Below, piece after piece: positions 17,822 to 42,041 of a stretch of DNA of 64,000 bases. Source of the stretch: Patescibacteria group bacterium (GTDB lineage: Bacteria; Patescibacteriota; Minisyncoccia; Phycocordibacterales; JAKAEA01); assembly GCA_040387855.1 (NCBI GenBank), contig JAZKCY010000001.1:381857-445856 (forward strand). Direction: 5' to 3'. How positions within the stretch are numbered: position 1 is the stretch's first letter; every line of letters begins with the position of its first letter. The notes under the pieces were generated by a model. The model saw only the letters and a list, made by a program, of their open reading frames with translations, searched no databases and was not told the origin of the DNA. A program made the translations under genes and the position numbers.

Positions 17822-18475
17822 ATGGGTATTTCAGAAATTAAAAAAATAGTAGCACTGACAACAATCCTTTCAGTTGCATCGGTTGGATTGTATGTTGCAG
17901 CTGAACCACAGATTTCAAGCGCACAGGCAACTGCAGATGATACTGTTATTATTACACTTAACGTTGATGCGGGTATCTCTATCACAAGTCCTGCAGACTC
18001 TTCAATGAGTACAAACTTGGGTGTTTCTGTAAATAAGGCTATTGCTACAACCACTTGGAATGTTAAAACTAATAACAATCTTGGATATACTCTTGCTGTA
18101 AAAGCATCTCAGGATCCTGCAATGCAGTCAGCTGGTGATGAAGTGTTAGATTACACTGAATCTGTAGGAGGTACACCTGAGACATGGTCTGTAGGTGCAA
18201 GTACCGCAGAATTCGGATATTCAGCATTCGGAACCGATGTTCCAACTGGTACATGGGGAACAGGCTCACAGTGTTCTTCAACTGTTAATGCAAACTCAAC
18301 TACTCTTAAGTACGTAGGTTTTAGTACATCTGATAAAACTATTGCAACACGATCTTCAACTACAACTCCTTCTGGCATTGATTCTACAGTATGCTATGCT
18401 GTAGAACAAAATGGTTTCTATATTCCATCTGGAACATATACAGCTACCATTACAGCAACTGCGACCACCCTCTAA
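17822..18475 (+). CDS. Secreted Ser/Thr-rich surface protein, WxL-domain-like
   Basis: Signal peptide. TTWNVKTNNNLGYTLAVKAS resembles the first WxL motif. Clear paralog of 19491..20237. Confidence 0.5.
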   Translation: MGISEIKKIVALTTILSVASVGLYVAAEPQISSAQATADDTVIITLNVDAGISITSPADSSMSTNLGVSVNKAIATTTWNVKTNNNLGYTLAVKASQDPAMQSAGDEVLDYTESVGGTPETWSVGASTAEFGYSAFGTDVPTGTWGTGSQCSSTVNANSTTLKYVGFSTSDKTIATRSSTTTPSGIDSTVCYAVEQNGFYIPSGTYTATITATATTL

Positions 18476-18498
18476 TTTAACTTGGTTACATAAATAAA

Positions 18499-19482: not shown

Positions 19483-19490
19483 TTTAAGCT

Positions 19491-20237: not shown

Positions 20238-20238
20238 T

Positions 20239-26688: not shown

Positions 26689-26698
26689 AAATACTGCT

Positions 26699-27460
26699 AT
26701 GATAATTTCCGAACTGAAAGATTTATTAAAAAATATTGTACGATGGGCATTTGCATTCATAGCTTTGTCTACTTTTTTCTTTCTATTTTCTACACAAACG
26801 GTGACGATAAAAGGCAGGGAAGTGCCAGTGCCTTGGATGACTGATTCATCATATACGATTCAGTTTTTTGATACATTACAGCGTACATTGATACCAAGTG
26901 AAGTAGATCTTATTGTTACAAATCCATTCGATGCTTTTTTTATAGAGGTTAAATTATCTTTATTTTTAGCCTTTATTGTATTGTCGCCTTTTCTTTTGTG
27001 GGGAATACTACGATACCTTTCGCCAGCATTAAAACAGTCAGAAAGAAAATCATTATATAAAGTTGTATTACCATCTACTATTTTGTTTTTTAGCGGATGT
27101 CTATTTGCATATGCATACATTATTCCTTCTACGATAAAAATAATGTATGCACATGCGCCCAATATCAAAGCAATTCAGTACTTCAATGTTAATGATTTTA
27201 TTTCATTAGCACTCATGATGATGGTTGCTACGGGAATAATGTTTGTTCTTCCTGTGTGCATGGTTATCTCAAGTTATCTTGGGATAGTTAACCCCGTTAT
27301 TTGGAAACAGTATTGGCGCCAGGCAATTTTTGGATGTCTGTTAGTTACAGCAGTAATCACACCCGATGGTAGTGGAATTACCATGGCAATGCTTGCGATT
27401 CCACTCTGTTTACTCTATATAGTAGGCCTTTTTATCAGCTGGCGGTATAAAACTAGTTAG
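26699..27460 (+). CDS. tatC: Twin-arginine translocase subunit TatC
   Basis: Six TM helices with a TatC-like pattern (LSPFLLWGILRYLSPAL, ILFFSGCLFAYAYIIP). ATG at 26699 sits 11 nt after the giant gene's stop. Confidence 0.75.
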   Translation: MIISELKDLLKNIVRWAFAFIALSTFFFLFSTQTVTIKGREVPVPWMTDSSYTIQFFDTLQRTLIPSEVDLIVTNPFDAFFIEVKLSLFLAFIVLSPFLLWGILRYLSPALKQSERKSLYKVVLPSTILFFSGCLFAYAYIIPSTIKIMYAHAPNIKAIQYFNVNDFISLALMMMVATGIMFVLPVCMVISSYLGIVNPVIWKQYWRQAIFGCLLVTAVITPDGSGITMAMLAIPLCLLYIVGLFISWRYKTS

Positions 27461-27504: not shown

Positions 27505-27711
27505 ATGTTTGGATTAGGCGTACCAGAACTCATAATTATAGTATTAGCGTTTGGATTACTCTTTTTTGGTAGTAGTAAAATATCTGAATTTTCACGAAGT
27601 CTGGGAAGAATGTCTGGAGAATATAAAAAGAGCAAGCGTGAGATTGAAAAAGAAATTGAGGAAAGTGAACTAAAAACAACTGATCAGAAAAAAACTGATA
27701 CAACTAGTTAG
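27505..27711 (+). CDS. tatA: Twin-arginine translocase subunit TatA/E
   Basis: MFGLGVPELIIIVLAFGLLFFGSSKISEFSRSLGR is the canonical TatA N-terminus. Confidence 0.85.
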   Translation: MFGLGVPELIIIVLAFGLLFFGSSKISEFSRSLGRMSGEYKKSKREIEKEIEESELKTTDQKKTDTTS

Positions 27712-27725
27712 TTCTAATTTGGTAT

Positions 27726-27986
27726 ATGGCAGTACATCACAAACATACGGCTTCAGAAGAAGTACAAAAAAAGACACGTCGAAACATGATCAAACTTGCA
27801 CTTTTTGGAGGTGCTGCTTTTGTACTTGGGAAAGTATTTAATTCTGTTACTGAACATTTCTCAGATAAAGTAATACGTAATGTAGATTTTCAGAATTTCA
27901 ATTTTCAAGAATCAGAAAAAAAACTCACTATATCTGAAAAAGATGGTGAGCCACTGCTTATCATCGAAAAAGATTCATTTAAATAA
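27726..27986 (+). CDS. Small protein (86 aa) with a twin-arginine (Tat) signal peptide
   Basis: KKTRRNMIKLALFGGAAFVLG fits S/T-R-R-x-hydrophobic-hydrophobic-K plus an h-region. The gene lies immediately downstream of tatA. Confidence 0.5.
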   Translation: MAVHHKHTASEEVQKKTRRNMIKLALFGGAAFVLGKVFNSVTEHFSDKVIRNVDFQNFNFQESEKKLTISEKDGEPLLIIEKDSFK

Positions 27987-28001: not shown

Positions 28002-29540
28002 ATGACGGACACTGAATTACAGGCACAAGCAGCACATGCACAAGGTTTAGCATACTTAGAAAAAGGTATGTTTGGTGAGGCACTATTTCATCTAAAAAAA
28101 GCAATTACATTAGTCCCTAATTATTTAGAAGCACACAACACTTTGGGGCGAGCCTATAATGAAACAGGTGACTTCGAGTTGTCTATACAAACATGTCTCC
28201 ATATACTAAGTCAAAATCCACAGGCATATTTTGTGTTACAAAATATTGCTAAATCGTATGGAGAAATGGGACGACACGCTGAAGCACTGTCGTATTATTA
28301 CAGGTATATCGCTCTTAGTCCTACTGCGGCTACAGCCTACAGTGACCTTTTTTTAACACTAAATTATCTACCAATGTCGCGTGAAGCAATGTTTGTAGAA
28401 CATTATAAGTTTCATATATTTGATAAAAATAATACAAATAGTAACTATCTGTATCAGAAAAATATTCATGATAGTAGTAAAAGAAAAATCAAAGTTGGTT
28501 ATGTTTCAGGGGATTTAAGAGAGCATCCTGTAGCGCATCTTTTTGTTCCTGTTATAAAAAATCATGACAGATCAAAATTCAATATTCATATCTATAATAA
28601 TACGCATAGTCAAGATGATGTTACCAAGAAAATAAAGAATTATGGTGATACCTGGCGCGATATACAAGCACTTTCGCATGAAGATACACTAGAACTCATT
28701 AGGTCAGATAATTTAGATATTCTTGTGGATTTATCTGGACATACTGGCAGTAATAGACTTTTGATTTTTGCAGCTCGGGCTGCTCCAATACAGGTAGCGT
28801 GGTTGGGATATATGAATACTACGGGTCTTAAAAATATGGATTATAGAATTACAGATTTTAATTTGTCAGTACCTGATTCTGAAAAATACTATACTGAAAA
28901 GTTATGGCGAGTTACAAATTCTTTTACGTTCGATCCACTTATGGAGTTGCCTGATATCGATGATTTACCAGCTTTAAAAAATGGGTTTATAACATTTGCC
29001 TCATTAAATAATTATAAAAAGATTACTTCTCATGTTTATGATGTATGGGCAGATATTTTAAGAAAGATACCAACATCACGCTTGGTATTTTCGCTCAAGG
29101 GTAATGACACGCTTAAACAGTCGGTACTTACAAAATTTGAACTAAGAGGTATTAGTTCAGATCGAATTAAAATAATTGATCAAAAATTGATTGAAGATTA
29201 TGTGAAATTTTTCAATGATATAGATATATTATTAGATCCATTTCCATTTACAGGGTGTATTACTGTATTTCATGGTCTGTGGGGTGGAGTGCCATCTATC
29301 GTTATGGAAGGAGTAACAGAATATGAGCGTAACGGTCCAACTGTTATGAAAAAAGTTGGATTAGATTCATGTATTGCACATAATCCTCAAGAATATGTAG
29401 ATATCGCAGTTTATTGGGCAAGTCATTTTGATGAATTGGCTGAATTGCGTAAAAAAATGCGTGAAAAGTTCCCTAAAAATGAGGATAAACTAGTAACAAA
29501 AGGCATTGAAGACGCATTTATAAAAATGTATAATAGATAG
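28002..29540 (+). CDS. TPR-repeat protein fused to a GT41 (O-GlcNAc-transferase-like) glycosyltransferase domain
   Basis: N-terminal TPRs. The C-terminal KIKVGYVSGDLREHPVAHLFVPV...NIHIYN block matches the OGT/GT41 catalytic-domain signature (LRVGYVSSDF.NHPTSHLM). Confidence 0.65.
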   Translation: MTDTELQAQAAHAQGLAYLEKGMFGEALFHLKKAITLVPNYLEAHNTLGRAYNETGDFELSIQTCLHILSQNPQAYFVLQNIAKSYGEMGRHAEALSYYYRYIALSPTAATAYSDLFLTLNYLPMSREAMFVEHYKFHIFDKNNTNSNYLYQKNIHDSSKRKIKVGYVSGDLREHPVAHLFVPVIKNHDRSKFNIHIYNNTHSQDDVTKKIKNYGDTWRDIQALSHEDTLELIRSDNLDILVDLSGHTGSNRLLIFAARAAPIQVAWLGYMNTTGLKNMDYRITDFNLSVPDSEKYYTEKLWRVTNSFTFDPLMELPDIDDLPALKNGFITFASLNNYKKITSHVYDVWADILRKIPTSRLVFSLKGNDTLKQSVLTKFELRGISSDRIKIIDQKLIEDYVKFFNDIDILLDPFPFTGCITVFHGLWGGVPSIVMEGVTEYERNGPTVMKKVGLDSCIAHNPQEYVDIAVYWASHFDELAELRKKMREKFPKNEDKLVTKGIEDAFIKMYNR

Positions 29541-29545
29541 TATCT

Positions 29546-29938
29546 ATGGCTATAAATGTATCGCGTAATCGAATTGACTTTAATGATATTCGTGCGGAGT
29601 CTGCTGAATTTAGAGACAGTGCAGAAAGTGTAAATGCAATTGGTAGTGCGTCAGGTGCTGAGGCAATTGATTATTCACTGGGCAATGTCGTAACAGCAAC
29701 AACAACTGGTGCAACTGTCTGGTCTGTGACAAATCCACCTGCATCAGGAAAAGCTGGGAGTTTTACCCTTATTCTTACAAACGGCGGTAGCCAGACTCAA
29801 ACATGGATGAGTGGTACAAAATGGCCAAGTGGAGCAGCGCCAACACTTACTTCGTCAGGGATAGATATACTTACCTTTTTTACGGTTGATGCTGGTACTA
29901 CATGGTATGGAGTGTTGGCAATGAGTGCTATGGCTTAA
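29546..29938 (+). CDS. Hypothetical Thr/Gly-rich protein
   Basis: 130-aa ORF, tightly spaced within the operon. No domain recognised. Confidence 0.35.
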   Translation: MAINVSRNRIDFNDIRAESAEFRDSAESVNAIGSASGAEAIDYSLGNVVTATTTGATVWSVTNPPASGKAGSFTLILTNGGSQTQTWMSGTKWPSGAAPTLTSSGIDILTFFTVDAGTTWYGVLAMSAMA

Positions 29939-29979
29939 TATTTTTTGATTATTGCACTATGTTTGGACTAGGAGCAAAA

Positions 29980-32900
29980 ATGAGAGCAATTCAACAAACG
30001 GTTGTAGCTATTATTGATAATAGTTATCTTTTTGGTTGGGGGAAAAATACTTCCGGTCAAATTGGTAATAGCTCATTAACGAGTCAATCAAGTCCTGTTG
30101 GTCTAGGTACAACTTCTGATTGGAAAATGCTCTCTGGAGCATACACATTTTCGGCGGGAATCAAGACAAATGGGACACTATGGACATGGGGCGCTGGGAT
30201 ATTCGGAACTTTGGGGGATAATACAGATTCAGTTGCAAAATCAAGTCCAATTCAAGTTGGAACACTCAGTGATTGGGATACTGTTAGTACAGCAAAATTT
30301 CATGCTTTAGCTCGTAAAACAAATGGAACGATCTGGGGATGGGGGTTTAATGGTGGTGGTCAACTTGGCCAAAATAATATTACAGATAGATCAAGCCCAG
30401 TTCAGATTGGGACTTTAGGTACTTGGACCCATATTTTTACCGGTGGTCAAATATCAGGTGCGCGAAAAAGTGATGGAACACTGTGGTCATGGGGCCGAAA
30501 CACCTATGGGGCACTTGGAATCAATGCTGCAGGAGATAGATCAAGTCCTATTCAAATTGGAACTTTGACAACATGGGATCATATGTCTTTCGGATACCGA
30601 ACTGGATTGGCAAGAAAAACCGATGGTACCATTTGGGGATGGGGCAATAACAATCTTGGACAAATTGGTAACAGTACGGTTGTTAACAGATCAAGCCCTG
30701 GACAAATCGGTACTCTTACAACCTGGAGTAGTATTCATGCAGGGAACTTACATGGTATAGGCCGAAGGTCAGATGGTACATTGTGGGGTTGGGGTTGGGC
30801 TGGAAAAGTTGGAGATAATACTGCAACCAATAAATCAAGTCCAGTACAAATTGGAACATTAAGCTCATGGCTACATGTCGCTACTGGTTATGACCACACA
30901 CTGGCAAAAAGATCAGATGGAACTATTTGGAGTTGGGGATATGCTACATACGGTCGTTTGGGGGATAATGCCACTACTGATAGATCGAGTCCTGTGCAAA
31001 TTGGAACACTAACAGAATGGGATTCCATTTTTGCAGGGAGCAGTTCTCATTCTTCGTTTGCTTTAAAAAGATATAATCTAGGTATGTTTGCATGGGGAGT
31101 AGGTTCCCTCGGTCAAATAGGAAATAATGATGTAAGTCAACAAGATAGTCCGTTACAAGTGGGTACACTCACTTCATGGGAGGGTGTAGCTGTTGGTGCT
31201 AGTACCGTGCATGCATGGAAATCAGATGGAACACTGTGGACATGGGGTAGAAACTCATACGGTCGTTTGGGAGATAACACAACCACGAACAGATCAAGTC
31301 CAGTCCAAATTGGTACCCTTAATGTATGGAAAATGGCAGCTTCAGGTACAGGCCACTCAAGTGCTGTAAGAACTAACGGAACATTGTGGTCATGGGGATC
31401 TGGTGCAAACGGAGAAATGGGAGATAACACAGCAATTTCTAAATCAAGTCCAGTACAAGTAGGAACACTCTCAATTTGGGCAGAAACGTCCGCAGGAAGT
31501 ACATTCACCGTTGCGCGTCGAACAAATAATACTATTTGGTCATGGGGTAGTAACTTGTATGGTCGTTTGGGTCAAAGCACTACTACAAATAGATCTAGTC
31601 CAGTGCAAATTGGAACATTAAGTAACTGGTCTGGTATTTCTGCAGGAGGCCAACATGCACTAGGAATAAAAACTGACGGTGGTATTTGGGCATGGGGTCT
31701 GAACACCTCTGGACAAATGGGAGATAATACTGCTGTTACAAAATCAAGTCCTGTTCGTATTGGGACTCTTACAAACTGGAAAGGTATTTCAGCGGGTGCA
31801 TCTCACAATGTTGCGTGGAAAACTGACGGATCATTATGGGCATGGGGAATAAATACAAACGGAAGATTGGGAGATAATACTACTACAACCAGATCAAGTC
31901 CTGTGCGTATTGGGACTTTATCTGATTGGGCTTCAGCTTCTGCCCAACTAGAGCATACTATTGCTCGAAAGACAGACGGTACGCTATGGGCCTGGGGAAA
32001 GGGAGACTATGGTCAGCTTGGAGATGGAATTGCACGACTTAAGAACACACCACTTCAAATCGGTACGCTAACAAACTGGGGAACTGTATCTATGGGAGCC
32101 TCACACACCGTTGCATGGAAAACAAATAATACTATTTGGGGATGGGGAATTGGGGGCCAAGTGGGAGACAATACCGCTGTTACAAGATCAAGCCCCGTAC
32201 AAATTGGAACGCTATCTACATGGCAATCTATTGATACTGGTGATTCACATACTGTAGCTATAAAGACTGACGGTACAATGTGGGCATGGGGAGCAAACAC
32301 GTCAGGCCAAGTAGGAGACAATACGAATGTTACAAAATCAAGTCCTGTACAGATTGGAACTTTAAACACATGGGCAAGTGTGTCGGCTGGAAATATTCAC
32401 TCTATTGCTCGAAAAACAGATAGTAGTATTTGGTCATGGGGACTTGGAAGTGTGGGTGCACTTGGAGATAATACAGCCACTACCAAATCAAGCCCGGTAC
32501 GAATTGGTACACTTAATACCTGGGCAAGTGTGACTGCTGGTGGAAACCACTCTCATGCAATAAAAGCTGATGGATCATTGTGGTCATGGGGTTACAATTT
32601 TTATGGGCAATTAGGCGATAGTTCAAATGTGGCTAAATCAAGTCCTGTTCGAGTTGGTACGCTCAATGATTGGTCAATTGTATCAGCAGGAATTCAGCAT
32701 TCATTAGCAATCAAAACAAACGGGACATTGTGGGCATGGGGATTTGGAACTTCCGGACAGCTTGGAGATAATACGGGTGGAACCTTCTCAAGTCCAATTC
32801 AAATTGGTACGCTCACTACTTGGGCTGGGGTGTCTGCAGGTGCAGAACACTCTCTTGGATGGAAAGCTGATGGAACTTTGTGGGCCTGGGGCTACAATGC

Positions 32901-33174
32901 ATCCGGACAATTGGGAGACGGTACATTTACTCAATATCTTAGTCCTATTCAAGTTGGTACGGTTTCTACATGGAGTACTGCTTCAGCTGGACCAAACCAC
33001 AGTGGTGCTGTGAGAGCCGATGGGACATTATGGATGTGGGGAACTCGTCTTAATGGTAGAATCGGAGATAACAACATGCCGGGTAAATCGAGCCCAATTA
33101 AAATAGGTACCATGAACGATTGGCGTACATTGGGTAACGGTCCAAATGGACTGATGAGTATTTCAATTAAATAA
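29980..33174 (+). CDS. RCC1/BLIP-II-type beta-propeller repeat protein (about 20 repeats), no signal peptide
   Basis: About 50-aa repeats (GTLWxWGxNxxGQLGDNTxxxxSSPVQIGTLxxW) occur at regular intervals. ATG at 29980 is preceded by AGGAG. The track's longer version starts at 29902. Confidence 0.7.
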   Translation: MRAIQQTVVAIIDNSYLFGWGKNTSGQIGNSSLTSQSSPVGLGTTSDWKMLSGAYTFSAGIKTNGTLWTWGAGIFGTLGDNTDSVAKSSPIQVGTLSDWDTVSTAKFHALARKTNGTIWGWGFNGGGQLGQNNITDRSSPVQIGTLGTWTHIFTGGQISGARKSDGTLWSWGRNTYGALGINAAGDRSSPIQIGTLTTWDHMSFGYRTGLARKTDGTIWGWGNNNLGQIGNSTVVNRSSPGQIGTLTTWSSIHAGNLHGIGRRSDGTLWGWGWAGKVGDNTATNKSSPVQIGTLSSWLHVATGYDHTLAKRSDGTIWSWGYATYGRLGDNATTDRSSPVQIGTLTEWDSIFAGSSSHSSFALKRYNLGMFAWGVGSLGQIGNNDVSQQDSPLQVGTLTSWEGVAVGASTVHAWKSDGTLWTWGRNSYGRLGDNTTTNRSSPVQIGTLNVWKMAASGTGHSSAVRTNGTLWSWGSGANGEMGDNTAISKSSPVQVGTLSIWAETSAGSTFTVARRTNNTIWSWGSNLYGRLGQSTTTNRSSPVQIGTLSNWSGISAGGQHALGIKTDGGIWAWGLNTSGQMGDNTAVTKSSPVRIGTLTNWKGISAGASHNVAWKTDGSLWAWGINTNGRLGDNTTTTRSSPVRIGTLSDWASASAQLEHTIARKTDGTLWAWGKGDYGQLGDGIARLKNTPLQIGTLTNWGTVSMGASHTVAWKTNNTIWGWGIGGQVGDNTAVTRSSPVQIGTLSTWQSIDTGDSHTVAIKTDGTMWAWGANTSGQVGDNTNVTKSSPVQIGTLNTWASVSAGNIHSIARKTDSSIWSWGLGSVGALGDNTATTKSSPVRIGTLNTWASVTAGGNHSHAIKADGSLWSWGYNFYGQLGDSSNVAKSSPVRVGTLNDWSIVSAGIQHSLAIKTNGTLWAWGFGTSGQLGDNTGGTFSSPIQIGTLTTWAGVSAGAEHSLGWKADGTLWAWGYNASGQLGDGTFTQYLSPIQVGTVSTWSTASAGPNHSGAVRADGTLWMWGTRLNGRIGDNNMPGKSSPIKIGTMNDWRTLGNGPNGLMSISIK

Positions 33175-33180
33175 TATTTT

Positions 33181-35124
33181 ATGGCAACCCTTACTGAAAT
33201 TCTAGAAATATCTGGAACATTAGAAAAAGCAGAAGAAATAGCTCGGCAATTAGTAGTGCAAGATCCAACATATATGTTGGATCTTCAGCTTATATTGAGC
33301 GCTCGTGGTAAAGTTGCAGAATCTAAAAAAATTATTGAAGATCTGAGTAATAAGTTTCCCAATGATCATAGAATAGCTTTCAACCAAGGATGGCACGTAT
33401 TGAATGAAGGTGATTTACAGCGGGGAATGGAACTCATAGATCGAGGAAGAAATGTGGGGGTATTTGGTTCACCCGCACTTCAAACAGATAAGCCCTTATG
33501 GGATGGGAAAAATGCCAAAGGAAAAACTATTTTACTTCGATGTGAAGGAGGATTGGGAGATGAAATTCTTAATATTCGTTTTGCTAAAGATATAGCAGAG
33601 AGAGGTGGAACAGTTATAGTAGCTTGTGATAAAGGTTTGCAAAGCGTGTTCTCTCGAGTTTCAGGCGTCGCCAAAACTATTTCTTTAGATCACATTCAAG
33701 ATGAGTACTTTGATGCATGGGTACCTGCTATGAGCGCTGTAAGAGTGTGTGGTCACACTTATGAAACACTTCCAAGTGAAGCTTATATTACTGCTTTACC
33801 AGAGAAAATTGCAGAATGGAATAAGACTGTTAATGCTGATAATGGAGTGTTGAAAGTTGGAATACGCTGGTCTGGCAATGCAGAATTTGAACATGAACAA
33901 ATGCGAAGATTCCCTTTCAAGCATATCTTGGATGTATTTGAAACTCCCAATGCTAAATTTTTTAGTTTACAACGTGATTCGGATTTGAAAGTGTTACCTC
34001 CTGAAGTTGTCGATTTAAGTGGTCTTATGAATACATGGGAAGATACAGCAGGAGTTATTGCAAACTTAGATTTAGTAATAACTTCATGTACAAGTGTTGC
34101 TCATATGGCGGCAGCAATGGGCAAAGAAACATGGATTATTGTTCCACTAATGCCATATTATACGTGGGCTATGCCTGGGAATAAAACTCCATGGTATAAA
34201 AGCGTGACGTTGTATAGACAAGAATCAGACACAAACTGGGAAGCCTCATTTATAAAGGTACGACAAGCATTAGAAGAATCGACAACTCAAGTAATACGTA
34301 CTAGTATTGATCCAATGCAAAATCACACAAAAAAGACGCTCCATTTCGTAGCAGGACTACCGCGTTCTGGTAGTACTATGCTCATTAGTTTGCTTGCCCA
34401 AAATCCTACTATTTTCGGTGCACCCGTTTCAGGTTTGGCTGGTATTGTAAACGGAGTAAATACTAATTGGGATAAAATAGAATTTCATAAGGAAGTTCCT
34501 AATGAAGAAGCAAAGATGTATACCTTGCGAGCTATTTTAGATAGCTATCATGCTGCAACATCTAAACCAATTATCCTAGATAAAGAGCGTCATTGGATTC
34601 GTTATATTTTATTGCTTGAAAAGTTATTAGACAGAAAAGTGAAAGTAATTGTTCCTGTTCGTCCTATTGCAGAAATACTCACTTCATTTGAAGTATTGCG
34701 ACAAAAGAATCCATTAACTCTCACAATGGTGGATGAAGTACTTGGTCCGAAATCTACATTATCTACACGTTGTGATTACTTTATGAATGAAGAAGGTCCT
34801 GTAGGGAGTTGTATCAATTATACTCGTGATGCTGTCATTTCCGGCTTGAGTGATCGTTTATTATTTGTGGATTACAATAAATTTATTGCTAATCCCGAGC
34901 GTGATCTAAAACGAATATATAGTTTCTTAGAAATCCCTTATTTTGAGCATGATTTGCATAACATAAAGCAGCTTACTATGAGTGATGATTCAATATGGAA
35001 GTATCCAGGATTACATGATGTTCGATCTGTCGTATCAAAAATCTCTGCTGATCCTATAAGTGTCCTTGGTCCTGAGCTTGTAGCAAAGTTTAGTCAGGGT
35101 GAACCATGGGAAAATTGGACATAA
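33181..35124 (+). CDS. Tri-partite enzyme: TPR-like N-terminus, GT9 (heptosyltransferase-like) glycosyltransferase, and a C-terminal sulfotransferase domain
   Basis: GT9 motifs KTILLRCEGGLGDEI and DLVITSCTSVAHMAAAMGKETWII. The C-terminus has a PAPS-binding-type LPRSGSTML P-loop (5'-PSB) and a downstream basic motif. Confidence 0.6.
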   Translation: MATLTEILEISGTLEKAEEIARQLVVQDPTYMLDLQLILSARGKVAESKKIIEDLSNKFPNDHRIAFNQGWHVLNEGDLQRGMELIDRGRNVGVFGSPALQTDKPLWDGKNAKGKTILLRCEGGLGDEILNIRFAKDIAERGGTVIVACDKGLQSVFSRVSGVAKTISLDHIQDEYFDAWVPAMSAVRVCGHTYETLPSEAYITALPEKIAEWNKTVNADNGVLKVGIRWSGNAEFEHEQMRRFPFKHILDVFETPNAKFFSLQRDSDLKVLPPEVVDLSGLMNTWEDTAGVIANLDLVITSCTSVAHMAAAMGKETWIIVPLMPYYTWAMPGNKTPWYKSVTLYRQESDTNWEASFIKVRQALEESTTQVIRTSIDPMQNHTKKTLHFVAGLPRSGSTMLISLLAQNPTIFGAPVSGLAGIVNGVNTNWDKIEFHKEVPNEEAKMYTLRAILDSYHAATSKPIILDKERHWIRYILLLEKLLDRKVKVIVPVRPIAEILTSFEVLRQKNPLTLTMVDEVLGPKSTLSTRCDYFMNEEGPVGSCINYTRDAVISGLSDRLLFVDYNKFIANPERDLKRIYSFLEIPYFEHDLHNIKQLTMSDDSIWKYPGLHDVRSVVSKISADPISVLGPELVAKFSQGEPWENWT

Positions 35125-35139
35125 TCCAATACGTTAAGT

Positions 35140-36459
35140 ATGAAACATTTCCATACAAATATTCAAGGATGGTTTTTTGCAGAATATTTTTTTGCTGACA
35201 TTGTTAAAAATGCACCTGATGGTGCGCATTTTGTTGAAGTTGGAAGTTGGAAAGGAAAGAGTGCTGTTTTTATGGCAGTTGAGATTGCCAACAGTGGAAA
35301 GCGAATAAAATTTGATTGTATTGACCATTGGAAGGGCTCGAAAGATACATACTTAGAAAACGAAGATCAAGCTGTTAAAGACGGTAATCTTTTTGAGGTT
35401 TTTAAAGAGAATATTGAGCCAGTACAAGAGTACATAAATGCTATCGATGGAGATAGCGCTGCTACAGCTTCACGTTATGCAGACGGATCTCTTGATTTTA
35501 TCTATATAGATGCTGCACATGATTATGAAAGCGTAAAAAGAGATATTAAGGCTTGGTTACCCAAATTAAAGTCAGATGGAGTCATTGCTGGGGATGATTT
35601 TACTGAAGCATTCCCTGGATTAGTTCAAGCTGTGCAAGAAATATTCCCTCAAGGATTATCAGTAATTCACCCTACATGGGTTGTGGATCGACGTACAATA
35701 AATTCAGAACAAGGATGTTCGATAATCTTTAGATGCCATACTGGTGATAATGTTCATGATGGAGTACGATTTGCTGGGGTAAGTAAAACAGAACTTGTTG
35801 TTAAGTGTTTTAAATCTATAGTGTCGGCAGCAGAAATTGTAAACCGTGATATTGAAATTGTGATTGTAGATGATCATTCAGAAAAGAAATGTATTGAAGC
35901 ACTTGAAGATGTGCTAACAACTTCACGACATCCACATAAAATAATTCATGTAACAGACACAGGTAATAAAGCATCGTTACGAGAATCATTCGAATATGCT
36001 CGTGATTATGGTAAAGAGCTTGTTTATTTTGTGGAGGATGATTATTTACACCTCCCTACATCATTACTGGAAATGATCGAGCAACAAACTGAGTTTAAAA
36101 ATAACTTAAACAATAAAGAAGTGGCATTTTATCCCGTTGATTATCCAGATCGATATCAACCTCAAGGAATATATCAATCAATGATAGTTCTTGGCAAACA
36201 CCGTCACTGGAGAACTACTCGACACTCAACACTTACTTTTTTTTCTTCTCGGAAAGCAGTTTTTGAATATTGGGAATTATTTGAAAAAATGTGGCAAGGG
36301 GAGGGTAATTTTGTAGATGAAGATCAAACGGTAAATAAACTGTGGGGTCCAGATATTCAGCTCTTTTCTCCAATTCCAACACTCGCTATTCATATGCAAT
36401 TCGAAGAACACAAACCTCCTTTTGTTGATTGGCAAAAGTATTGGGATGCTATACAGTAA
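35140..36459 (+). CDS. Fusion: class I SAM-dependent methyltransferase (Methyltransf_24/TylF-MycF/CmcI-like) plus GT-A-fold glycosyltransferase domain
   Basis: The N-terminus has VEVGSWKGKSAVFMA and DFIYIDAAHDYESV. The C-terminal ~250 aa (IVIVDDHS...YFVEDDYLH...HW(R)T...LAIHM) is paralogous to 37046..37816 and 37813..38580. Confidence 0.6.
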   Translation: MKHFHTNIQGWFFAEYFFADIVKNAPDGAHFVEVGSWKGKSAVFMAVEIANSGKRIKFDCIDHWKGSKDTYLENEDQAVKDGNLFEVFKENIEPVQEYINAIDGDSAATASRYADGSLDFIYIDAAHDYESVKRDIKAWLPKLKSDGVIAGDDFTEAFPGLVQAVQEIFPQGLSVIHPTWVVDRRTINSEQGCSIIFRCHTGDNVHDGVRFAGVSKTELVVKCFKSIVSAAEIVNRDIEIVIVDDHSEKKCIEALEDVLTTSRHPHKIIHVTDTGNKASLRESFEYARDYGKELVYFVEDDYLHLPTSLLEMIEQQTEFKNNLNNKEVAFYPVDYPDRYQPQGIYQSMIVLGKHRHWRTTRHSTLTFFSSRKAVFEYWELFEKMWQGEGNFVDEDQTVNKLWGPDIQLFSPIPTLAIHMQFEEHKPPFVDWQKYWDAIQ

Positions 36460-36463
36460 CACT

Positions 36464-37033
36464 ATGAAATTAAATCTTGGCTGTGGCTTCAATAAACTGG
36501 ATGGATATATAAATGTAGATAATTCGGCTGTATGTAAGCCTGATCAGGTGTTTGATATAGAATCGACCCCATGGCCTTGGCAAGATAGTTCGATTGACGA
36601 GATCAGATTAGATCATGTTTTGGAGCACATTGGTGTGGACCCAAAAACATATATTTCAGTATGGAAAGAAATATGGCGCGTATCAAAACCCAATGCTCAG
36701 ATTTTTATTCGAGTTCCACACTGGAGGCATGAAAACTTTGCACATGATCCTACACATGTACGTCCTATTACTCCTGTTGGTATTGCCATGTTTGATCAGC
36801 TACGTAACAGGGAAGACGAAAAGCGTGGAGGTCAAGAAACAAAGCTTGGACTTATGTATGCAATAGATGTTGCTATAGAACGTGTTGAATATGTGTTTGT
36901 CCCCGAAATACAGCAAGCTTTAGAAAAGAAATTTATATCTCAAGAAAAAGCTTCTTCACTTATGGAACATGAAAATAATGTATGTCAGGAAATTAAAATC
37001 GGTGTGCGAGTTATGAAGCCTTGTCGAGGCTAG
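36464..37033 (+). CDS. Class I SAM-dependent methyltransferase (Methyltransf_11-like)
   Basis: MKLNLGCGFNKLDGYINVD is the glycine-rich SAM-binding motif I. Confidence 0.6.
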   Translation: MKLNLGCGFNKLDGYINVDNSAVCKPDQVFDIESTPWPWQDSSIDEIRLDHVLEHIGVDPKTYISVWKEIWRVSKPNAQIFIRVPHWRHENFAHDPTHVRPITPVGIAMFDQLRNREDEKRGGQETKLGLMYAIDVAIERVEYVFVPEIQQALEKKFISQEKASSLMEHENNVCQEIKIGVRVMKPCRG

Positions 37034-37045
37034 CATCGATAAACT

Positions 37046-37816
37046 ATGAAATTAGATATTATTTTACGGACACATTCTTTAGGTAATGTGCATCCAGAAA
37101 AAAGAGTAATGACGGATTCTAAGGAAGAAATGCTTATTAAATGTGTTTTTTCTTTAATAAAATCAATAGATACTATCAAAGGTGCTCATGATATAAAGCT
37201 AGCAATAATAGATGATCACTCTTCTGAATTATGTATGCAGAAGCTTAAAAAAATGGTGAGTGATCTTAAATATCCCTATATATTAATACATCTTGAAGAT
37301 ACGGGAAATAATGCTTCTTTAAAAAAGTGTTATGAATATGCGCATGATAATGCGCGTGATGTTATTTATTTTGTAGAGGATGATTATCTACATAATCCGA
37401 GCGCTCTAGTAGAGATGATTGAATCATATGAGCTGTTCCAATCCAATTTAGGGGGAACAGATATCGCATTATTGCCGTATGATGATCCCGATAATTATAA
37501 ACCAGGTTGGATTCATCCCAGCCGAATAGTATTGAGCAAAAATCGCTATTGGAGAACAAATACAATTACAAATGGTACCTTCATGATATCAAAGAAAGTA
37601 CTATTGGATTTTTGGGATACATTTATGGCATTTACTCAATATGGTACAGGTTTGAAGTCTAATGAATCTGCAACAATAAATAAAATTTGGAGTGAGTCTG
37701 TTCGCCTTTTTACTCCTATGCCAAGCTTGGCAATTCATATGCATCATACATTGAGAATGTCTCCATTTATTGATTGGAAAAGTTTGTGGGATTCAATGGA
37801 TACATCACATTTATGA
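37046..37816 (+). CDS. GT-A-fold glycosyltransferase (DXD = EDDY), tandem paralog 2
   Basis: MKLDIILRTHS...IIDDHS...YFVEDDYLH...RYWRTN...LAIHMH. Its TGA overlaps the next gene's start (ATGA). Confidence 0.55.
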   Translation: MKLDIILRTHSLGNVHPEKRVMTDSKEEMLIKCVFSLIKSIDTIKGAHDIKLAIIDDHSSELCMQKLKKMVSDLKYPYILIHLEDTGNNASLKKCYEYAHDNARDVIYFVEDDYLHNPSALVEMIESYELFQSNLGGTDIALLPYDDPDNYKPGWIHPSRIVLSKNRYWRTNTITNGTFMISKKVLLDFWDTFMAFTQYGTGLKSNESATINKIWSESVRLFTPMPSLAIHMHHTLRMSPFIDWKSLWDSMDTSHL

Positions 37817-38580
37817 AATTAGATATTATTTTACGAACTCATTCTACAGGTAACTTGCGACCAGGCACACGTTTTCTACAAGTACCAAAAGAACAGTTGG
37901 TTTTAACATGTACCACTTCACTCATAAATTCTGCGAATCTCGTTTCGCCAGATGACCACGAAATAAAAATAGTAATAGTAGATGATCACTCAACAGAATC
38001 ATGCGTTGCTGGCTTGAAAAGAATTTTAGCAACTTCAAAACATCCAACACAACTAATTCAGATAGAACAACCGGGGCATGCTGCATCGCTTATGGCTTGC
38101 TATGAATATGGTAGAGATCATGCTCGAGATGTTATCTATTTTATTGAAGATGATTACCTTCACTTTCCGTCTGCGATCTCTGAAATGATTGAAATGTACG
38201 ATTGGGTAAAGGCTAGCCTGGGTGATAAAGAAGTTGCGCTCTTAGCAAATGATGATCCTGATAGTTATCGTAATCCTTGGATGGAACCAGCAAGGATTGT
38301 ATTAGGTAAGTATCGTCATTGGAGAACAAACTTGTTTTCTACTAGCTCATTTTGGTTTTCAAAAAAAACACTGCTTAAGTATTGGGACATTTATATGCGG
38401 CATACACATTACGGGGAACATGAAGTGATTCATGAGGGTACGACTGTCGATAGAGTATGGCGACATTCTGTTCAATTGTTTACTCCAATACCATCATTAG
38501 CTGTTCATATGGAATACACAGACAATATTGCTCCATTTGTTTATTGGGAAGGCCTGTGGAAAAGTATTATAGTGCCGTAG
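37813..38580 (+). CDS. GT-A-fold glycosyltransferase (DXD = EDDY), tandem paralog 3
   Basis: MKLDIILRTHSTGN...IVIVDDHS...YFIEDDYLH...RHWRTN...LAVHME. Confidence 0.55.
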   Translation: MKLDIILRTHSTGNLRPGTRFLQVPKEQLVLTCTTSLINSANLVSPDDHEIKIVIVDDHSTESCVAGLKRILATSKHPTQLIQIEQPGHAASLMACYEYGRDHARDVIYFIEDDYLHFPSAISEMIEMYDWVKASLGDKEVALLANDDPDSYRNPWMEPARIVLGKYRHWRTNLFSTSSFWFSKKTLLKYWDIYMRHTHYGEHEVIHEGTTVDRVWRHSVQLFTPIPSLAVHMEYTDNIAPFVYWEGLWKSIIVP

Positions 38581-38615: not shown

Positions 38616-39641
38616 ATGAAAAAACTACTAAATTTTGTTAAATATAATAACTTCTTTTCTCTCGGAGTTATGTTTCTGTTACTTGGAACTGGAGTGACTT
38701 TTGCTGCGAGTCCTACCGCACGTGATGCAATAGTTTTAAAAAATGAATCTGTTGTATCTATTGATAATACCTATATTATTAGTGTAAATTTAAATGCATT
38801 TAACCCAAATCTAAAGATTACTACAATTACTGAAGATGCAGTTAATTACAATGTAGGGTACAGCTACGATACAATTGATCTTATTGATGATATCTGGCAG
38901 CGTGCTACATTACAAAAAACGTTGGTAGTGTCTAAAGAAGCATTGCAAGGTAAAGATCTTGGATTATTTGTATCTGAGCAATTAAGTCAGATGGTAGATA
39001 GTCATTTGGCATATCTTAAAAATGTACAAAAGATAGAAATAACTAAAGGTGCTACACAAAAAATTGTTGCTACTGAATATTCCGGCCTTCTTGGAAGTGT
39101 ATTGAGTTCACAGGAAAAAGTATTCAATGGATATGTTCCTGTGATTCCTCCAGAAAATAAAGATGAAGAAAAGACAGAGACACTTGCTGTGAATGAAGAA
39201 CCAGAATCAGAACGATCAAAATCAATCGGAGCTGCAGAACGAGCTGCTATTCAACAGCAGAAAGATGAGGAAGCTCGACGACAATCTGAAGAAGCTAGAA
39301 TTAGAGATGAAGTGAATCGAATGCTTGAAGAACAAAATAAACCACAAGAAGAAGTTCCAGCTGAAACTGAAGAGCCAGCTCAACCAGTTGGATCTGCAAG
39401 TGGTAGTGAGTCAGAAATAGAAACTCCAACCCCGGAACCCACACCAACTCCGGAGCCTATACCAGAACCTGAACCAACTCCGACCCCAGAGCCAACTCCA
39501 ACACCGGAACCAGAACCCACACCAACCCCAGAACCTCAGCCTGAGCCAACACCGACTCCAGAACCAACTCCTACACCTGAGCCAGCACCAGAGGCCGAAG
39601 AGCCAGTTACAACCCCATCAGAACCTGCTCCTGATCAATAA
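38616..39641 (+). CDS. Secreted protein with a charged coiled-coil segment and a C-terminal (P-T/E-P) repeat tract
   Basis: Signal peptide ends AAS. The C-terminus is (T/E)P(T/E)P repeats of about 80 aa. Confidence 0.55.
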   Translation: MKKLLNFVKYNNFFSLGVMFLLLGTGVTFAASPTARDAIVLKNESVVSIDNTYIISVNLNAFNPNLKITTITEDAVNYNVGYSYDTIDLIDDIWQRATLQKTLVVSKEALQGKDLGLFVSEQLSQMVDSHLAYLKNVQKIEITKGATQKIVATEYSGLLGSVLSSQEKVFNGYVPVIPPENKDEEKTETLAVNEEPESERSKSIGAAERAAIQQQKDEEARRQSEEARIRDEVNRMLEEQNKPQEEVPAETEEPAQPVGSASGSESEIETPTPEPTPTPEPIPEPEPTPTPEPTPTPEPEPTPTPEPQPEPTPTPEPTPTPEPAPEAEEPVTTPSEPAPDQ

Positions 39642-40973: not shown

Positions 40974-42041
40974 ATGTTCAAAAATTTCCGACAAAGACTT
41001 ACAAAAATGTTTAGCAATGAGATCGGCATCGATCTTGGAACTGCTAATACATTGGTCTATTTACGTGGTCGTGGAATTGTAATTAATGAACCATCAGTAG
41101 TTGCAATCAATCAGAAGACAGGAACTGTAGTTGCAATTGGAACACAAGCAAAAGATATGCTTGGACGTACTCCTCAGCATATTATCGCAGTAAAACCGCT
41201 TGTAGACGGAGTTATATCAGATTTTGAGGTGACAGAAGAAATGATTACCTATCTACTAAACAAAGCGCAGAAAGATACAAAAAAGTTTCTCGGTCCAAAA
41301 GTAGTGGTGGGTGTGCCATCAGGAATTACCAATGTTGAGACACGAGCAGTTCGAGATGCTACAAAAAACGCAGGAGCTAGAGAAGTATATATAGTTGAAG
41401 AGCCTATGGCCGCTGCTGTTGGTATTCGCTTGCCTGTAATGGAACCAGTTGGAAATATGATTATTGATATTGGTGGTGGAACAACCGATATTGCCGTTAT
41501 ATCACTTGGTGGTGTTGTTGTTTCAAAAAATCTAAAAATAGCAGGTGATAAGCTTAATGCAGATATCACTACCTATATCCGAAGTGAATTTAAAATTTTA
41601 ATTGGTGAAAAGACTGCAGAGCAAATTAAAATTACAATTGGCGCAGTATTGCCGGGAGAAACTCCCATGGAATCTATAATTAAGGGAAGAGATCTCGTTA
41701 CTGGTTTGCCACGTGAAGTAGTTATTACAGATGCTGATATCCGAGAAGCAACATCTCAATCTATAGAGACATTGCTTGAAGCTTCAAAAGAAGTTCTTGA
41801 AACTACACCTCCAGAAATTATTGCTGATGTCATGCACCGAGGGATTTACCTTACTGGTGGAGGGGCTCTTATAAAGGGACTTCATGTGTTACTTGCAGAC
41901 TTTCTGAAAATTCCTGTTCATGTGGCAGAGGATCCTCTTACTGCTGTTGCCCGTGGAACTGGTATTATTTTAGAAAATATACCAAAATATCAAGATATTT
42001 TGATTCAAAACGAAGATGATCTACCAGCCGCGAGATACTAA
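40974..42041 (+). CDS. mreB: Rod-shape protein MreB (paralog 2, in the mreBCD-mrdA operon)
   Basis: GIDLGTANTLVY. Full-length actin-fold. Confidence 0.9.
   Translation: MFKNFRQRLTKMFSNEIGIDLGTANTLVYLRGRGIVINEPSVVAINQKTGTVVAIGTQAKDMLGRTPQHIIAVKPLVDGVISDFEVTEEMITYLLNKAQKDTKKFLGPKVVVGVPSGITNVETRAVRDATKNAGAREVYIVEEPMAAAVGIRLPVMEPVGNMIIDIGGGTTDIAVISLGGVVVSKNLKIAGDKLNADITTYIRSEFKILIGEKTAEQIKITIGAVLPGETPMESIIKGRDLVTGLPREVVITDADIREATSQSIETLLEASKEVLETTPPEIIADVMHRGIYLTGGGALIKGLHVLLADFLKIPVHVAEDPLTAVARGTGIILENIPKYQDILIQNEDDLPAARY

Follow-up and report, generated by a model that had tools for sequence, protein, structure and literature searches.

Which molecule is modified by a cluster of glycosyltransferases, methyltransferases and a sulfotransferase is the question raised by this locus, which lies in a 64-kb stretch of DNA (the window) from a Patescibacteria group bacterium. 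An initial annotation did not recognise the gene combination from any characterised system. Related loci showed that this genome is not alone in having it: the cassette is widespread, and commonest in the tail-fibre modules of phages. The island is best explained as the form taken in Patescibacteria by this conserved cassette, which has an RCC1 protein and a GT9-like enzyme at its core. No published description of it was found in the literature, and the cassette is apparently undescribed to date.

Organization of the island

ORF calling in the window gave eight tightly packed ORFs on the + strand between 28002 and 38580, with gaps or overlaps of at most 40 nt (Table 1). The tight, co-oriented island seen at first was borne out; its gene count was seven, because the small ORF for TF130 had been overlooked. 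The tatC and tatA genes, the 1688-aa protein with its Sec-type signal and the PT-repeat protein were also found as described. Among the neighbouring surface proteins, the label "WxL-like" had no Pfam support, and the FN3 assignment stood weakly (4e-4).

Table 1. Genes of the island and its immediate neighbours (window coordinates).
Feature	Position	Strand	Evidence or remark
1688-aa fibre-like surface protein	21622..26688	+	Sec-type signal peptide; outside core cassette
tatC	26621..27460	+	Pfam TatC 4.7e-47
tatA	27505..27711	+	N-terminal TM helix, then amphipathic helix
86-aa protein, twin-arginine signal KTRRNMIKLALFGGAAFVLG	27726..27986	+	
TPR + GT41 protein glycosyltransferase, SPINDLY/OGT-like	28002..29540	+	Pfam PF13844
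TF130, stand-alone 130-aa phage tail-fibre domain	29546..29938	+	PHROG matches
RCC1-repeat protein, 21 blades, no signal peptide	29959..33174	+	Pfam RCC1, WD40_RLD
TPR + GT9-fold glycosyltransferase (aa ~1-370)::sulfotransferase (aa ~385-647)	33181..35124	+	
Methyltransf_24 (TylF/CmcI-class) methyltransferase::GT-A glycosyltransferase	35140..36459	+	Pfam PF13578, PF00535
Small class-I SAM methyltransferase	36464..37033	+	Methyltransf_11 (weak), phrog_6636
Soluble GT-A glycosyltransferase, paralogue 1	37046..37816	+	Pfam GT2
Soluble GT-A glycosyltransferase, paralogue 2	37813..38580	+	Pfam GT2
341-aa protein, (TPEP)n tail	38616..39641	+	signal or anchor sequence

Related loci were gathered through their GT9-like gene, and the counts below ignore relatedness. 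The phage sample is the best 80 of at least 578 IMG/VR loci encoding a GT9-like relative; the second sample has 68 genome, metagenome and phage loci (cellular or mixed).

Enzymes of the island

Pfam searches of each ORF supported the enzyme identities proposed before, with the GT9-like domain below the Pfam GT9 threshold. The GT41 protein matched Glyco_transf_41 (E 4.7e-46) and carries TPRs. Its alignments to Arabidopsis SPINDLY (9e-84) and Thermobaculum OGT (TtOGT, 5.5e-78) in PDB span nearly the whole protein, and it also matched human OGT (1e-65), while HMW1C gave only 2e-7. Present in 7/68 cellular loci and in none of the best 80 phage loci, GT41 is an accessory confined to Patescibacteria-type (cellular) loci.

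The signature enzyme of the cassette is the TPR-GT9-fold::sulfotransferase protein. Conserved motifs suggest that its GT9-like domain is catalytically competent. TPR modules precede both GT-B enzymes, GT41 and GT9-like, an architecture shared with OGT and SPINDLY, whose targets are proteins. The C-terminal half matched Sulfotransfer_1 (3.5e-13) and Sulfotransfer_3 (1.5e-11). Sulfate and methyl groups could be placed on the glycan or on the protein; in structure, the sulfotransferase comes closest to protein-tyrosine sulfotransferases, so the sulfate may sit on protein and not on glycan.

The next gene combines Methyltransf_24 (1.9e-23) with a GT2 domain (2.9e-7), a fusion found also in L001 and L010. 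The small SAM methyltransferase matched Methyltransf_11 weakly (0.0022) and the PHROG methyltransferase phrog_6636 (4e-8), and has an LNLGCG motif. It occurs in 39 of the best 80 phage loci and adjoins GT9-like genes in Bdellovibrionota, and is a conserved cassette member. GT-A paralogues 1 and 2 matched GT2 at 2.7e-6 and 3.4e-9; paralogue 1 shares 49% identity with paralogue 2 and 40% with the GT-A half of the methyltransferase fusion. The sole match of the GT-A family profile was SpsA, and it was weak. GT-A genes were present in 20/68 cellular or mixed loci and 15/80 best phage loci.

Protein-directed or lipid-linked pathway

Neither the enzymes nor TF130 and the RCC1 protein have hydrophobic segments (maximum KD19 <1.4). 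No membrane segment or signal peptide was found in the island enzymes, and the Bdellovibrio GT9-like proteins likewise lack signals. Wzx/Wzy, an ABC exporter and an initiating phosphoglycosyltransferase were absent from the window, and none recurred across 148 related loci, where a standard lipid-linked polysaccharide locus was not found. Only 11 of 955 ORFs of at least 250 aa within 7 kb of GT9-like genes were polytopic, and five of these were TatC. No PAPS- or nucleotide-sugar-synthesis gene was seen in the window. Because soluble enzymes of these kinds occur here without a flippase, polymerase or initiating transferase, the protein-directed, methylating and sulfating pathway proposed initially is still the best reading.

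Alternatively, the enzymes might synthesise or alter glycans other than those on proteins, for instance cell-wall polymers, lipid-linked oligosaccharides or, in the case of phages, the host envelope, with RCC1 as a lectin for the product or for a similar glycan of a target cell. The RCC1 propeller of a Saccharibacteria minor pilin was proposed as a lectin-like adhesin (PMC11623550), and nucleotide-sugar genes occur nearby in some loci (epimerase and dehydratase in L005, epimerase in cyanophage S-SRM01). We think this quite improbable, because besides the missing lipid-linked machinery the enzymes are all soluble with TPR modules among them, and the cassette stands in tail-fibre modules of lytic T4-like cyanophages. 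It also stands in Patescibacteria, which are generally held to be without LPS.

RCC1 propeller and tail-fibre domain

The RCC1 protein (Pfam RCC1 8.5e-168, WD40_RLD 5e-249) has 21 blades with a period of ~50 aa, which we read as three 7-bladed beta-propellers. Its start was first placed at 29902, the longest ORF; 29959 or 29980 is probably the likelier one, as AGGAG lies 7 nt 5' of 29980 and the closest relative begins at the equivalent Met. The blades carry a near-invariant loop, (K/R)SSP(V/I)Q(I/V)GTL. In cassette RCC1 proteins, 57-73% of the blades have a [ST][ST]P loop. A C. difficile phage without a GT9-like gene has an RCC1 protein in its tail-fibre module that lacks this loop. The loop may also be a mere trait of this RCC1 subfamily.

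TF130 matched the phage tail-fibre families phrog_7760 (4.6e-12) and phrog_9017 (3e-11), and in relatives the domain is Pfam PF26209 (Phage_phiTE_241_C). It is fused to RCC1 in four loci (L003, L005, L012 and L014). TF130 is a probable adaptor linking a fibre to the propeller, and the RCC1 protein a probable fibre-tip adhesin. No relationship to TF130 was detectable (hhalign probability 0.6%) for the C-terminus of the Bdellovibrio fibre that precedes the cassette in L021. No export signal was found on the RCC1 or TF130 protein of the window, and a surface role here would require some further export route.

Distribution of the cassette

Relatives of the GT9-like enzyme were found in at least 578 IMG/VR phage contigs. 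An RCC1 gene was present in 77 of the best 80 IMG/VR loci, mostly directly upstream of the GT9-like gene and co-oriented, and in 50/68 cellular or mixed loci, mostly adjoining it and co-oriented. The pairing is not universal, as some loci with long flanks had no RCC1 gene (L046, L066). RCC1, first listed as one pathway component, rather accompanies the GT9-like enzyme as its constant partner and is probably the acceptor of the modifications. Among the 50,697 GenBank phage records, the three closest RCC1 relatives were exactly the three with a GT9-like gene within a few kb.

Of the best 80 IMG/VR loci, 46 had a sulfotransferase and 32 a TF-domain protein. Upstream of RCC1 and the GT9-like gene there is often a fibre with the 130-aa domain at its end, and sulfotransferase, methyltransferase and GT-A usually follow. 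The phage contigs are genuine, and the cassette lies inside their tail-fibre module, with terminase, portal, tail protein and tail-fibre assembly chaperone alongside; the cultured lytic T4-like cyanophages BUCT-ZZ01 and S-SRM01 have it likewise in tail-fibre modules. The same core is found in Bdellovibrionota, where the RCC1 proteins bear twin-arginine signals (S/T-R-R-x-F-L type in ~17/19 full-length RCC1 neighbours).

The GT9-like::sulfotransferase fusion occurs in both domain orders, a GT9-like::methyltransferase fusion in five loci, and in L061 sulfotransferase, GT9-like and GT41 domains follow one another within a single 1349-aa ORF. These fusions appear to link the enzymes into one pathway.

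The abundance in phages, the tail-fibre domain in the island and a local GC rise to 0.42-0.43 over the RCC1 gene could mean that a prophage tail-fibre module is decaying here and that the island is what remains of it, without a function of its own in the cell. We consider this very improbable, because all eight ORFs are intact, the flanks in the window are the housekeeping genes tatCA, proS, mreBC and PBP2, and no terminase, portal or capsid gene was found among ~40 larger window ORFs scanned against Pfam. Relatives with a signature enzyme just 50-65% identical also have the island at this chromosomal position, and the GC rise is consistent with the Gly/Ser/Thr-rich repeats.

Flanking surface proteins and the acceptor

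The 1688-aa protein had no Pfam match. It has an N-terminal hydrophobic signal and repeated GNVGIGTTSPYAKLSVAG segments, which have matches among the fibre proteins encoded ahead of RCC1 genes in four Bdellovibrionota loci. Its C-terminal ~190 aa are conserved (E 1e-12 to 1e-73) in giant proteins just upstream of tatC in four relatives. The 341-aa protein, also without Pfam match, consists of a conserved N-terminal domain, a charged helix and the (TPEP)n tail, and stands at the island's end in Patescibacteria. Eight related islands have a homologue at their downstream end, in which the N-terminal ~190 aa are conserved (E 1e-42 to 1e-75).

These Sec-exported, Ser/Thr/Pro-rich neighbours could be O-glycosylated before export, with RCC1 only an accessory. 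HMW1, AIDA-I and serine-rich repeat adhesins are modified in the cytoplasm ahead of export. OGT/SPINDLY-type GT41 enzymes favour Ser/Thr within extended regions, and the island GT41 is strongly SPINDLY-like. The conserved domains of both proteins consistently flank Patescibacteria islands, and GT41 and the PT-tail protein are both confined to Patescibacteria-type loci. This explanation nevertheless seems unlikely to us. Both proteins were missing from the 80 phage loci and Bdellovibrionota loci had no PT-tail domain, yet in phages and Bdellovibrionota the GT9-like enzyme, sulfotransferase, methyltransferase and GT-A still accompany RCC1. The co-occurrence is inconsistent, as the PT-tail protein stands without GT41 in L003, L005 and L012, and the near-constant RCC1 neighbour and TF130::RCC1 fusions would be left unexplained. 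Being Patescibacteria-specific, the 1688-aa, WxL/FN3 and PT-repeat proteins named first as substrates cannot be the general substrate, though they may be extra substrates here.

With slightly better than even confidence we favour a cytoplasmic system modifying an adhesin, in which the RCC1 propeller of the island would be a likelier acceptor than the neighbouring Sec-exported proteins. The adjacency of RCC1 and GT9-like genes is equally compatible with the propeller as a lectin, scaffold or regulator for the product of the enzymes.

Linkage with tat genes

The tat genes were directly upstream in 7/9 distinct Patescibacteria loci with enough upstream sequence; the tatC position is kept in six relatives, and the tatA counterparts match Pfam TatA_B_E. 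The linkage is missing from some Patescibacteria-type loci (L005, L014), and could be an inherited gene order inside one Patescibacteria class. The 86-aa protein is the sole convincing RR-signal ORF of the window. Its RR motif and hydrophobic region were kept in 7/7 matching ORFs (six distinct homologues) of related loci, making it a candidate Tat substrate or membrane anchor.

Proposed function

The core would be an RCC1 fibre protein and its dedicated soluble TPR-GT9-fold enzyme, with sulfotransferase, small methyltransferase and GT-A as usual companions, and GT41 and the Methyltransf_24 domain as additions in this genome. In the cytoplasm, the TPR-bearing GT9-like enzyme would recognise the folded or folding propeller and put a sugar on the Ser-Ser-Pro loops of most blades; GT41 may act likewise. 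GT-A enzymes would extend the glycan, and methyltransferases and the sulfotransferase would cap it. TF130, separate here, propeller-fused in relatives and in phages the fibre's C-terminal tip, would couple propeller to fibre. The decorated propeller would then be the distal, cell-recognising part of a fibre, modified before it leaves the cell, which would fit a host-attaching episymbiont, phages and predatory Bdellovibrio alike. In cellular lineages the folded, modified protein might be exported via Tat: in Bdellovibrionota through its own RR signal, and in this genome the cassette stands directly after tatC, tatA and the RR-signal protein.

Comparison with known systems

Branched phage receptor-binding complexes (CBA120 TSP4 N-terminal docking domains, T4 gp9/gp10-type adaptors) are among the closest known systems. 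Phage-encoded soluble glycosyltransferases near structural genes decorate virion proteins (mycobacteriophage capsid and tail tube, chlorovirus capsid glycans). The cassette shares this arrangement but uses other enzyme families, has a fibre-tip propeller as putative target, adds a sulfotransferase and methyltransferases, and also occurs in cellular genomes.

Bdellovibrio uses phage tail-fibre-like proteins as adhesins recognising other cells. Saccharibacteria PilX2 carries an RCC1 propeller on a pilin for such recognition (PMC11623550). Both are cell-attaching bacteria, and the likeness lies in the phage-fibre-like proteins or RCC1 propellers used; the PilX2 propeller is pilin-borne, and no dedicated GT9-like enzyme is described for it.

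OGT, SPINDLY and bacterial OGT homologues have the same TPR and GT41 architecture as the island GT41. GT41 enzymes including HMW1C act on proteins in the cytoplasm, and HMW1C is encoded beside its adhesin substrate; the island GT41 is only remotely like this N-glycosyltransferase (2e-7). We know of no GT41 that modifies RCC1 propellers or works beside a GT9-fold enzyme, yet GT41 and GT9-like domains are fused in L061.

Compared with the bacterial autotransporter heptosyltransferases (BAHT; TibC/TibA, Aah/AIDA-I), the GT9-like enzyme is just 11% identical to TibC, and has an N-terminal TPR module and sulfotransferase or methyltransferase fusions. Its partner is a beta-propeller, while the BAHT partner is a beta-helix autotransporter, and its family occurs in phages, Patescibacteria and Bdellovibrionota, while BAHT occurs in enterobacterial pathogens. 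The cassette resembles TibC/TibA and HMW1C/HMW1, but both its enzyme family and its class of substrate appear to be new.

Gene content and setting of the island

The window has a GC content of about 0.38 and looks like a Patescibacteria (CPR) chromosome, with housekeeping genes both upstream (mreB, holB, frr, rseP) and downstream (proS, mreB, mreC, PBP2, greA, lysS, rsmH, ftsI and a murE-like gene). The island contains eight ORFs in one orientation, which overlap or are separated by gaps of at most 40 nt. Neither a membrane segment nor a signal peptide was found in any island enzyme or in the RCC1 protein. Promoter and terminator scans gave signals no better than shuffled sequence.

Features of the window, with positions and basis of assignment
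Feature	Position	Strand	Size and basis
Cro/C1-type HTH + enolpyruvyl transferase ORF	12337-14091	-	584 aa
mreB paralogue, first	14377-15390		full length
Four secreted or anchored proteins	17822-21609
Fibre protein	21622-26688		1688 aa
RR protein	27726-27986		86 aa
Island	28002-38580	+	eight ORFs
TPR + GT41	28002-29540	+	Pfam 4.7e-46
TF130 (tail-fibre domain)	29546-29938	+	130 aa
RCC1 protein		+	21 blades, ~50-aa period; Pfam and blade mapping
GT9-like::sulfotransferase fusion	33181-35124	+	647 aa; sulfotransferase in C-terminal half
Methyltransf_24 + GT-A	35140-36459	+
Small SAM methyltransferase	36464-37033	+	weak Pfam support; PHROG 4e-8
GT-A paralogue, first	37046-37816	+
GT-A paralogue, second	37813-38580	+
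PT-tail protein	38616-39641
mreB paralogue, second	40974-42041		full length
Class II tRNA synthetase + DUF2000	45349-47250		Pfam 1.9e-17 (DUF2000)
SKICH-like + GDSL protein	58405-59973		522 aa

The island is flanked by tatCA, proS, mreBC, PBP2, greA and lysS, which does not match a prophage; no terminase, portal, capsid or integrase gene was seen among the annotated window ORFs, and the only PHROG matches fell on TF130, RCC1 and enzyme ORFs. A frameshift that broke one gene into TF130 and the RCC1 ORF was also considered. It was rejected: in the closest relative the two are distinct genes with 12 nt between them, and the NCBI annotation likewise gives TF130 a gene of its own.

Other ORFs of the window were also recorded. 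The two mreB paralogues, 26 kb apart, bracket the region of surface proteins, tat genes and cassette. The 584-aa ORF is an unusual fusion of an N-terminal HTH with an EPSP-synthase/MurA-type domain. A Lys/Asp/Asn-type tRNA synthetase carries DUF2000 at its C-terminus, and one protein joins SKICH-like N-terminal domains to a GDSL lipase/acylhydrolase domain.

Assignment of the enzymes and the propeller

Pfam and PHROG matches upheld the GT41, RCC1, sulfotransferase, methyltransferase and GT-A domains named in the initial annotation. The first ORF matched Pfam Glyco_transf_41 with 157.6 bits (cut-off 25), carried several N-terminal TPR families, and aligned over nearly its full length with Arabidopsis SPINDLY (9e-84, query residues 8-490), Thermobaculum OGT (TtOGT, 5.5e-78) and human OGT (1e-65). 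By sequence it belongs to CAZy family GT41, of the OGT/SPINDLY type. Its likeness to HMW1C is only remote (PDB HMW1C-like chain, 1.9e-7), and the NCBIfam NGTferase equivalog for HMW1C-type N-glycosyltransferases gave 36.6 bits against a cut-off of 1000.

The sulfotransferase scored above the gathering score of Pfam Sulfotransfer_1 or Sulfotransfer_3 and has the 5'-phosphosulfate-binding loop. The RCC1 protein showed 20 RCC1 stretches and a WD40_RLD match of 825.9 bits, and its blades are read as three predicted 7-bladed propellers.

The assignment of the remaining glycosyltransferase to GT9 stood by fold but not by Pfam threshold. Pfam Glyco_transf_9 gave 12.9 bits on the window protein, below the gathering cut-off of 22, and across the GT9-like family it produced only weak matches, in 13 of 17 members (best E 0.0032). 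The predicted GT-B fold is closest to solved GT9 enzymes. When TF130 and the first 370 aa of the fusion were searched by sequence against the PDB, all matches were at chance level, so both folds were taken from prediction. A Gly-Asp loop that follows the first strand and a C-terminal 'DLVIxxDxxxxHLAAAxG' nucleotide-sugar motif are the hallmarks of GT9 enzymes. Two motifs were kept across 65 homologues, EGGLGDE (D127 nearly invariant) and DLVITSCTSVAHMAAAMGK, which may correspond to the GT9 catalytic residues of WaaC.

Distribution among cells and phages

Copies of the cassette are widespread, and the island is one of them. At least 993 homologues of the 647-aa fusion exist, and the GT9-like and sulfotransferase domains also occur in swapped order or unfused, each as its own protein. 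When genomes were scanned at one per species, relatives turned up in 61 loci, belonging (with taxon labels as in the source records) to Patescibacteria, many Bdellovibrionota, Bacteroidota, Planctomycetota, methanotrophic Gammaproteobacteria and one Woesearchaeote. The Bdellovibrionota loci include some on complete chromosomes, from B. bacteriovorus Bd16 and from Bdellovibrio sp. HCB337. Six loci from homologue look-ups and one from a cultured phage were added, and the mechanically called ORFs of these 68 loci were searched with the window proteins. In raw counts, which ignore kinship and come from loci all gathered via the GT9-like gene, an RCC1 ORF was present in 50 of the 68, mostly as direct same-strand neighbour of the GT9-like gene.

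At least 578 viral contigs in IMG/VR encode a GT9-like relative. Among the best 80 of these loci, counted in the same way, 77 have an RCC1 ORF (up to 2,655 aa), mostly immediately upstream, followed by a sulfotransferase in 46, a small methyltransferase in 39 and a GT-A enzyme in 15; a protein ending in TF130 precedes the RCC1 gene in 32. The idea that these contigs are mis-binned Patescibacteria was rejected, as they carry terminase, portal and tail protein genes. The cassette sits within the tail-fibre module, where the gene for a tail-fibre assembly chaperone separates RCC1 from the TF-ending fibre.

The arrangement recurs in two cultured phages. The T4-like cyanophage BUCT-ZZ01 encodes a TF-ending tail fibre, an assembly chaperone, an RCC1-like protein and a GT9-like::methyltransferase fusion, and the T4-like cyanophage S-SRM01 encodes a tail fibre, a GT9-like 'TPR protein', RCC1, a sulfotransferase, a glycosyltransferase and an epimerase. 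When the window RCC1 protein was searched against 50,697 GenBank phage records (tblastn), its three closest relatives proved to be precisely those that have a GT9-like gene close by; no such gene accompanied the RCC1 proteins of phages that are more distant.

Some loci showed other arrangements. In five IMG/VR loci (L126, L138, L139, L144, L146), four single-propeller RCC1 paralogues (~380 aa each) stand two on each side of the GT9-like::sulfotransferase gene. In B. bacteriovorus Bd16 (L021:6863-9979), a 1038-aa Sec-signal protein with tail-fibre-like repeats is directly upstream of GT9-like, methyltransferase and two Tat-signal RCC1 genes. We examined whether its C-terminus is a diverged TF130 and dropped the idea at an hhalign probability of 0.6%.

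Proposed modification of the propeller

To judge from the gene neighbourhoods, what stays constant is the pairing of an RCC1 propeller with a soluble, TPR-bearing GT9-fold enzyme. Gene fusions link the parts of the cassette. The GT9-like::sulfotransferase fusion occurs in both domain orders, the GT9-like::methyltransferase fusion in five loci, and TF130::RCC1 in several Patescibacteria proteins; one Patescibacteria MAG (UBA2135) has a 1349-aa ORF (L061:1649-5698) that joins sulfotransferase, GT9-like and GT41 domains in that order. The TF domain of phages invariably makes up the final ~100 residues of the fibre whose gene immediately precedes RCC1, and we therefore read it as a putative joint between shaft and propeller. 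In the paper on the phiTE structure, gp241 goes unmentioned.

The best-supported reading is that the cassette would be a dedicated cytoplasmic protein-modification system with the propeller as acceptor. The propeller might instead only bind the product of the enzymes, and this fits the adjacency equally well.

For the propeller as acceptor, nearly all blades of the window RCC1 protein offer a candidate site, the (K/R)SSP(V/I)Q(I/V)G loop; among RCC1 proteins of the cassette generally, 57-73% of blades have a [ST][ST]P loop. The Clostridioides difficile phage LIBA2945 has a 1627-aa RCC1 protein (L151:619-5502) between two tail-fibre genes with no GT9-like neighbour, and its blades lack the [ST][ST]P loop and read 'NTFTKV' where cassette proteins have 'SSPVQV'. 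The GT9-like enzyme would add a sugar to the propeller in the cytoplasm, possibly at the SSP loop. Extension of the glycan would fall to the GT-A enzymes, and its capping to the methyltransferases and sulfotransferase. Sulfate may instead be placed directly on protein; we keep this in play because the sulfotransferase is, in its modelled structure, nearest to tyrosylprotein sulfotransferases.

Neighbouring surface proteins and glycan carriers

The initial annotation regarded neighbouring surface proteins as the substrates of a protein O-glycosylation pathway. The 1688-aa fibre protein and the PT-tail protein mark the two ends of the island in Patescibacteria relatives: what is conserved there is the C-terminal 190 aa of the former and the N-terminal 190 aa of the latter. 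Therefore both belong to the local, lineage-specific version and might serve as additional substrates or as anchors, above all for GT41, which occurs in Patescibacteria-type loci only. The phage versions lack them, so they cannot explain the core. Upstream of the giant fibre protein, three of the four secreted or anchored proteins had no Pfam match and the fourth had only a weak FN3 / purple-acid-phosphatase-N match; the label 'WxL-like' found no support in Pfam.

A lipid-linked polysaccharide locus would have spoken against protein glycosylation. We detected no Wzx/Wzy, ABC exporter or initiating phosphoglycosyltransferase in the window, and no such machinery recurred in 148 related loci, where 11 of 955 nearby large ORFs were polytopic (five TatC, one EamA, others non-recurrent).

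Tat connection

By hand count, a classical twin-arginine signal such as 'LSRRAFLLNSATAATAAAGA' or 'MKVTRRGFLSK' stands at the start of about 17 of the 19 RCC1 neighbours that are full length in Bdellovibrionota; the GT9-like proteins beside them have no signal. It fits a pathway in which the folded propeller would be modified in the cytoplasm and then exported by Tat in Bdellovibrionota. The S/T-R-R-x-F-L-K motif with a hydrophobic region was absent from the window RCC1 and TF130 proteins, and those of Patescibacteria relatives are likewise without signal.

The 86-aa protein, the only RR-signal ORF within the 64-kb window, has a conserved Tat signal 'KTRRNMIKLALFGGAAFVLG' and a C-terminal domain of ~50 aa, 'FxNFxFxETxKxLTIxDKxGExLLIxxK'. 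It always stands right after tatA in Patescibacteria relatives. A word-index homologue search with it returned only itself, because of the limit of the word index, and the family is known from the related loci alone. The cassette directly follows tatC, tatA and the RR protein in 7 of 9 distinct Patescibacteria loci with enough upstream sequence (hand count); two loci, L005 and L014, have no tat genes. This order could reflect co-export or merely inherited gene order.

Possible role and comparison with known systems

A joint reading, which we hold as tentative and rather improbable, is a host-recognition module common to phages, predatory bacteria and episymbiotic Patescibacteria. An RCC1-propeller adhesin at the fibre tip, derived from tail fibres, would be glycosylated at multiple sites in the cytoplasm by an unrecognised TPR-GT9-fold family, with methylation and sulfation after. 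In cellular lineages the folded, modified protein would leave via Tat: the Bdellovibrionota propeller would use its own RR signal, and the propeller here would 'hitch-hike' on the 86-aa RR protein encoded between tatA and the island.

Were the proposed modification of the propeller confirmed, phage and bacterial RCC1 proteins would gain a function, which a 2020 paper called unknown for the phage proteins (PMC7247149), and a large unannotated family of protein-modifying glycosyltransferases would be defined. It would mean sulfated and methylated glycans on the target-touching part of phage fibre, predator and episymbiont, with bearing on host range and on the host choice of Patescibacteria. The twin-arginine signals would suggest natural Tat export of a protein glycosylated in the cytoplasm, of interest for glyco-engineering. 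Cultured carriers exist (cyanophages BUCT-ZZ01 and S-SRM01, Bdellovibrio strain Bd16), therefore the hypothesis is testable now.

Our literature search, in an incomplete collection, found no description of the cassette. For an RCC1 propeller carried by a Saccharibacteria pilin, a 2024 preprint proposed the role of lectin-like adhesin (PMC11623550). The 'RCC1' matches in an Ostreococcus virus paper were culture-collection strain numbers, not the protein.

Among known systems, the proposed one comes nearest to TibC/TibA and Aah/AIDA-I, where heptose is added to a repeat adhesin by a GT9-fold enzyme prior to export (PMC4358343), and also to HMW1C/HMW1. The bacterial autotransporter heptosyltransferases TibC and Aah have an iron-finger motif and a dodecameric assembly (PMC4358343). 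The GT9-like enzyme is only 11% identical to TibC, its constant neighbour is an RCC1 propeller and not an autotransporter, and no heptose-pathway genes were seen among annotated window ORFs. The principle of a dedicated cytoplasmic glycosyltransferase for an adhesin is already known. The novelty lies in the family of the enzyme, in a propeller as class of substrate, in sulfation and methylation as additions, in the phage-cell distribution and in the Tat link.
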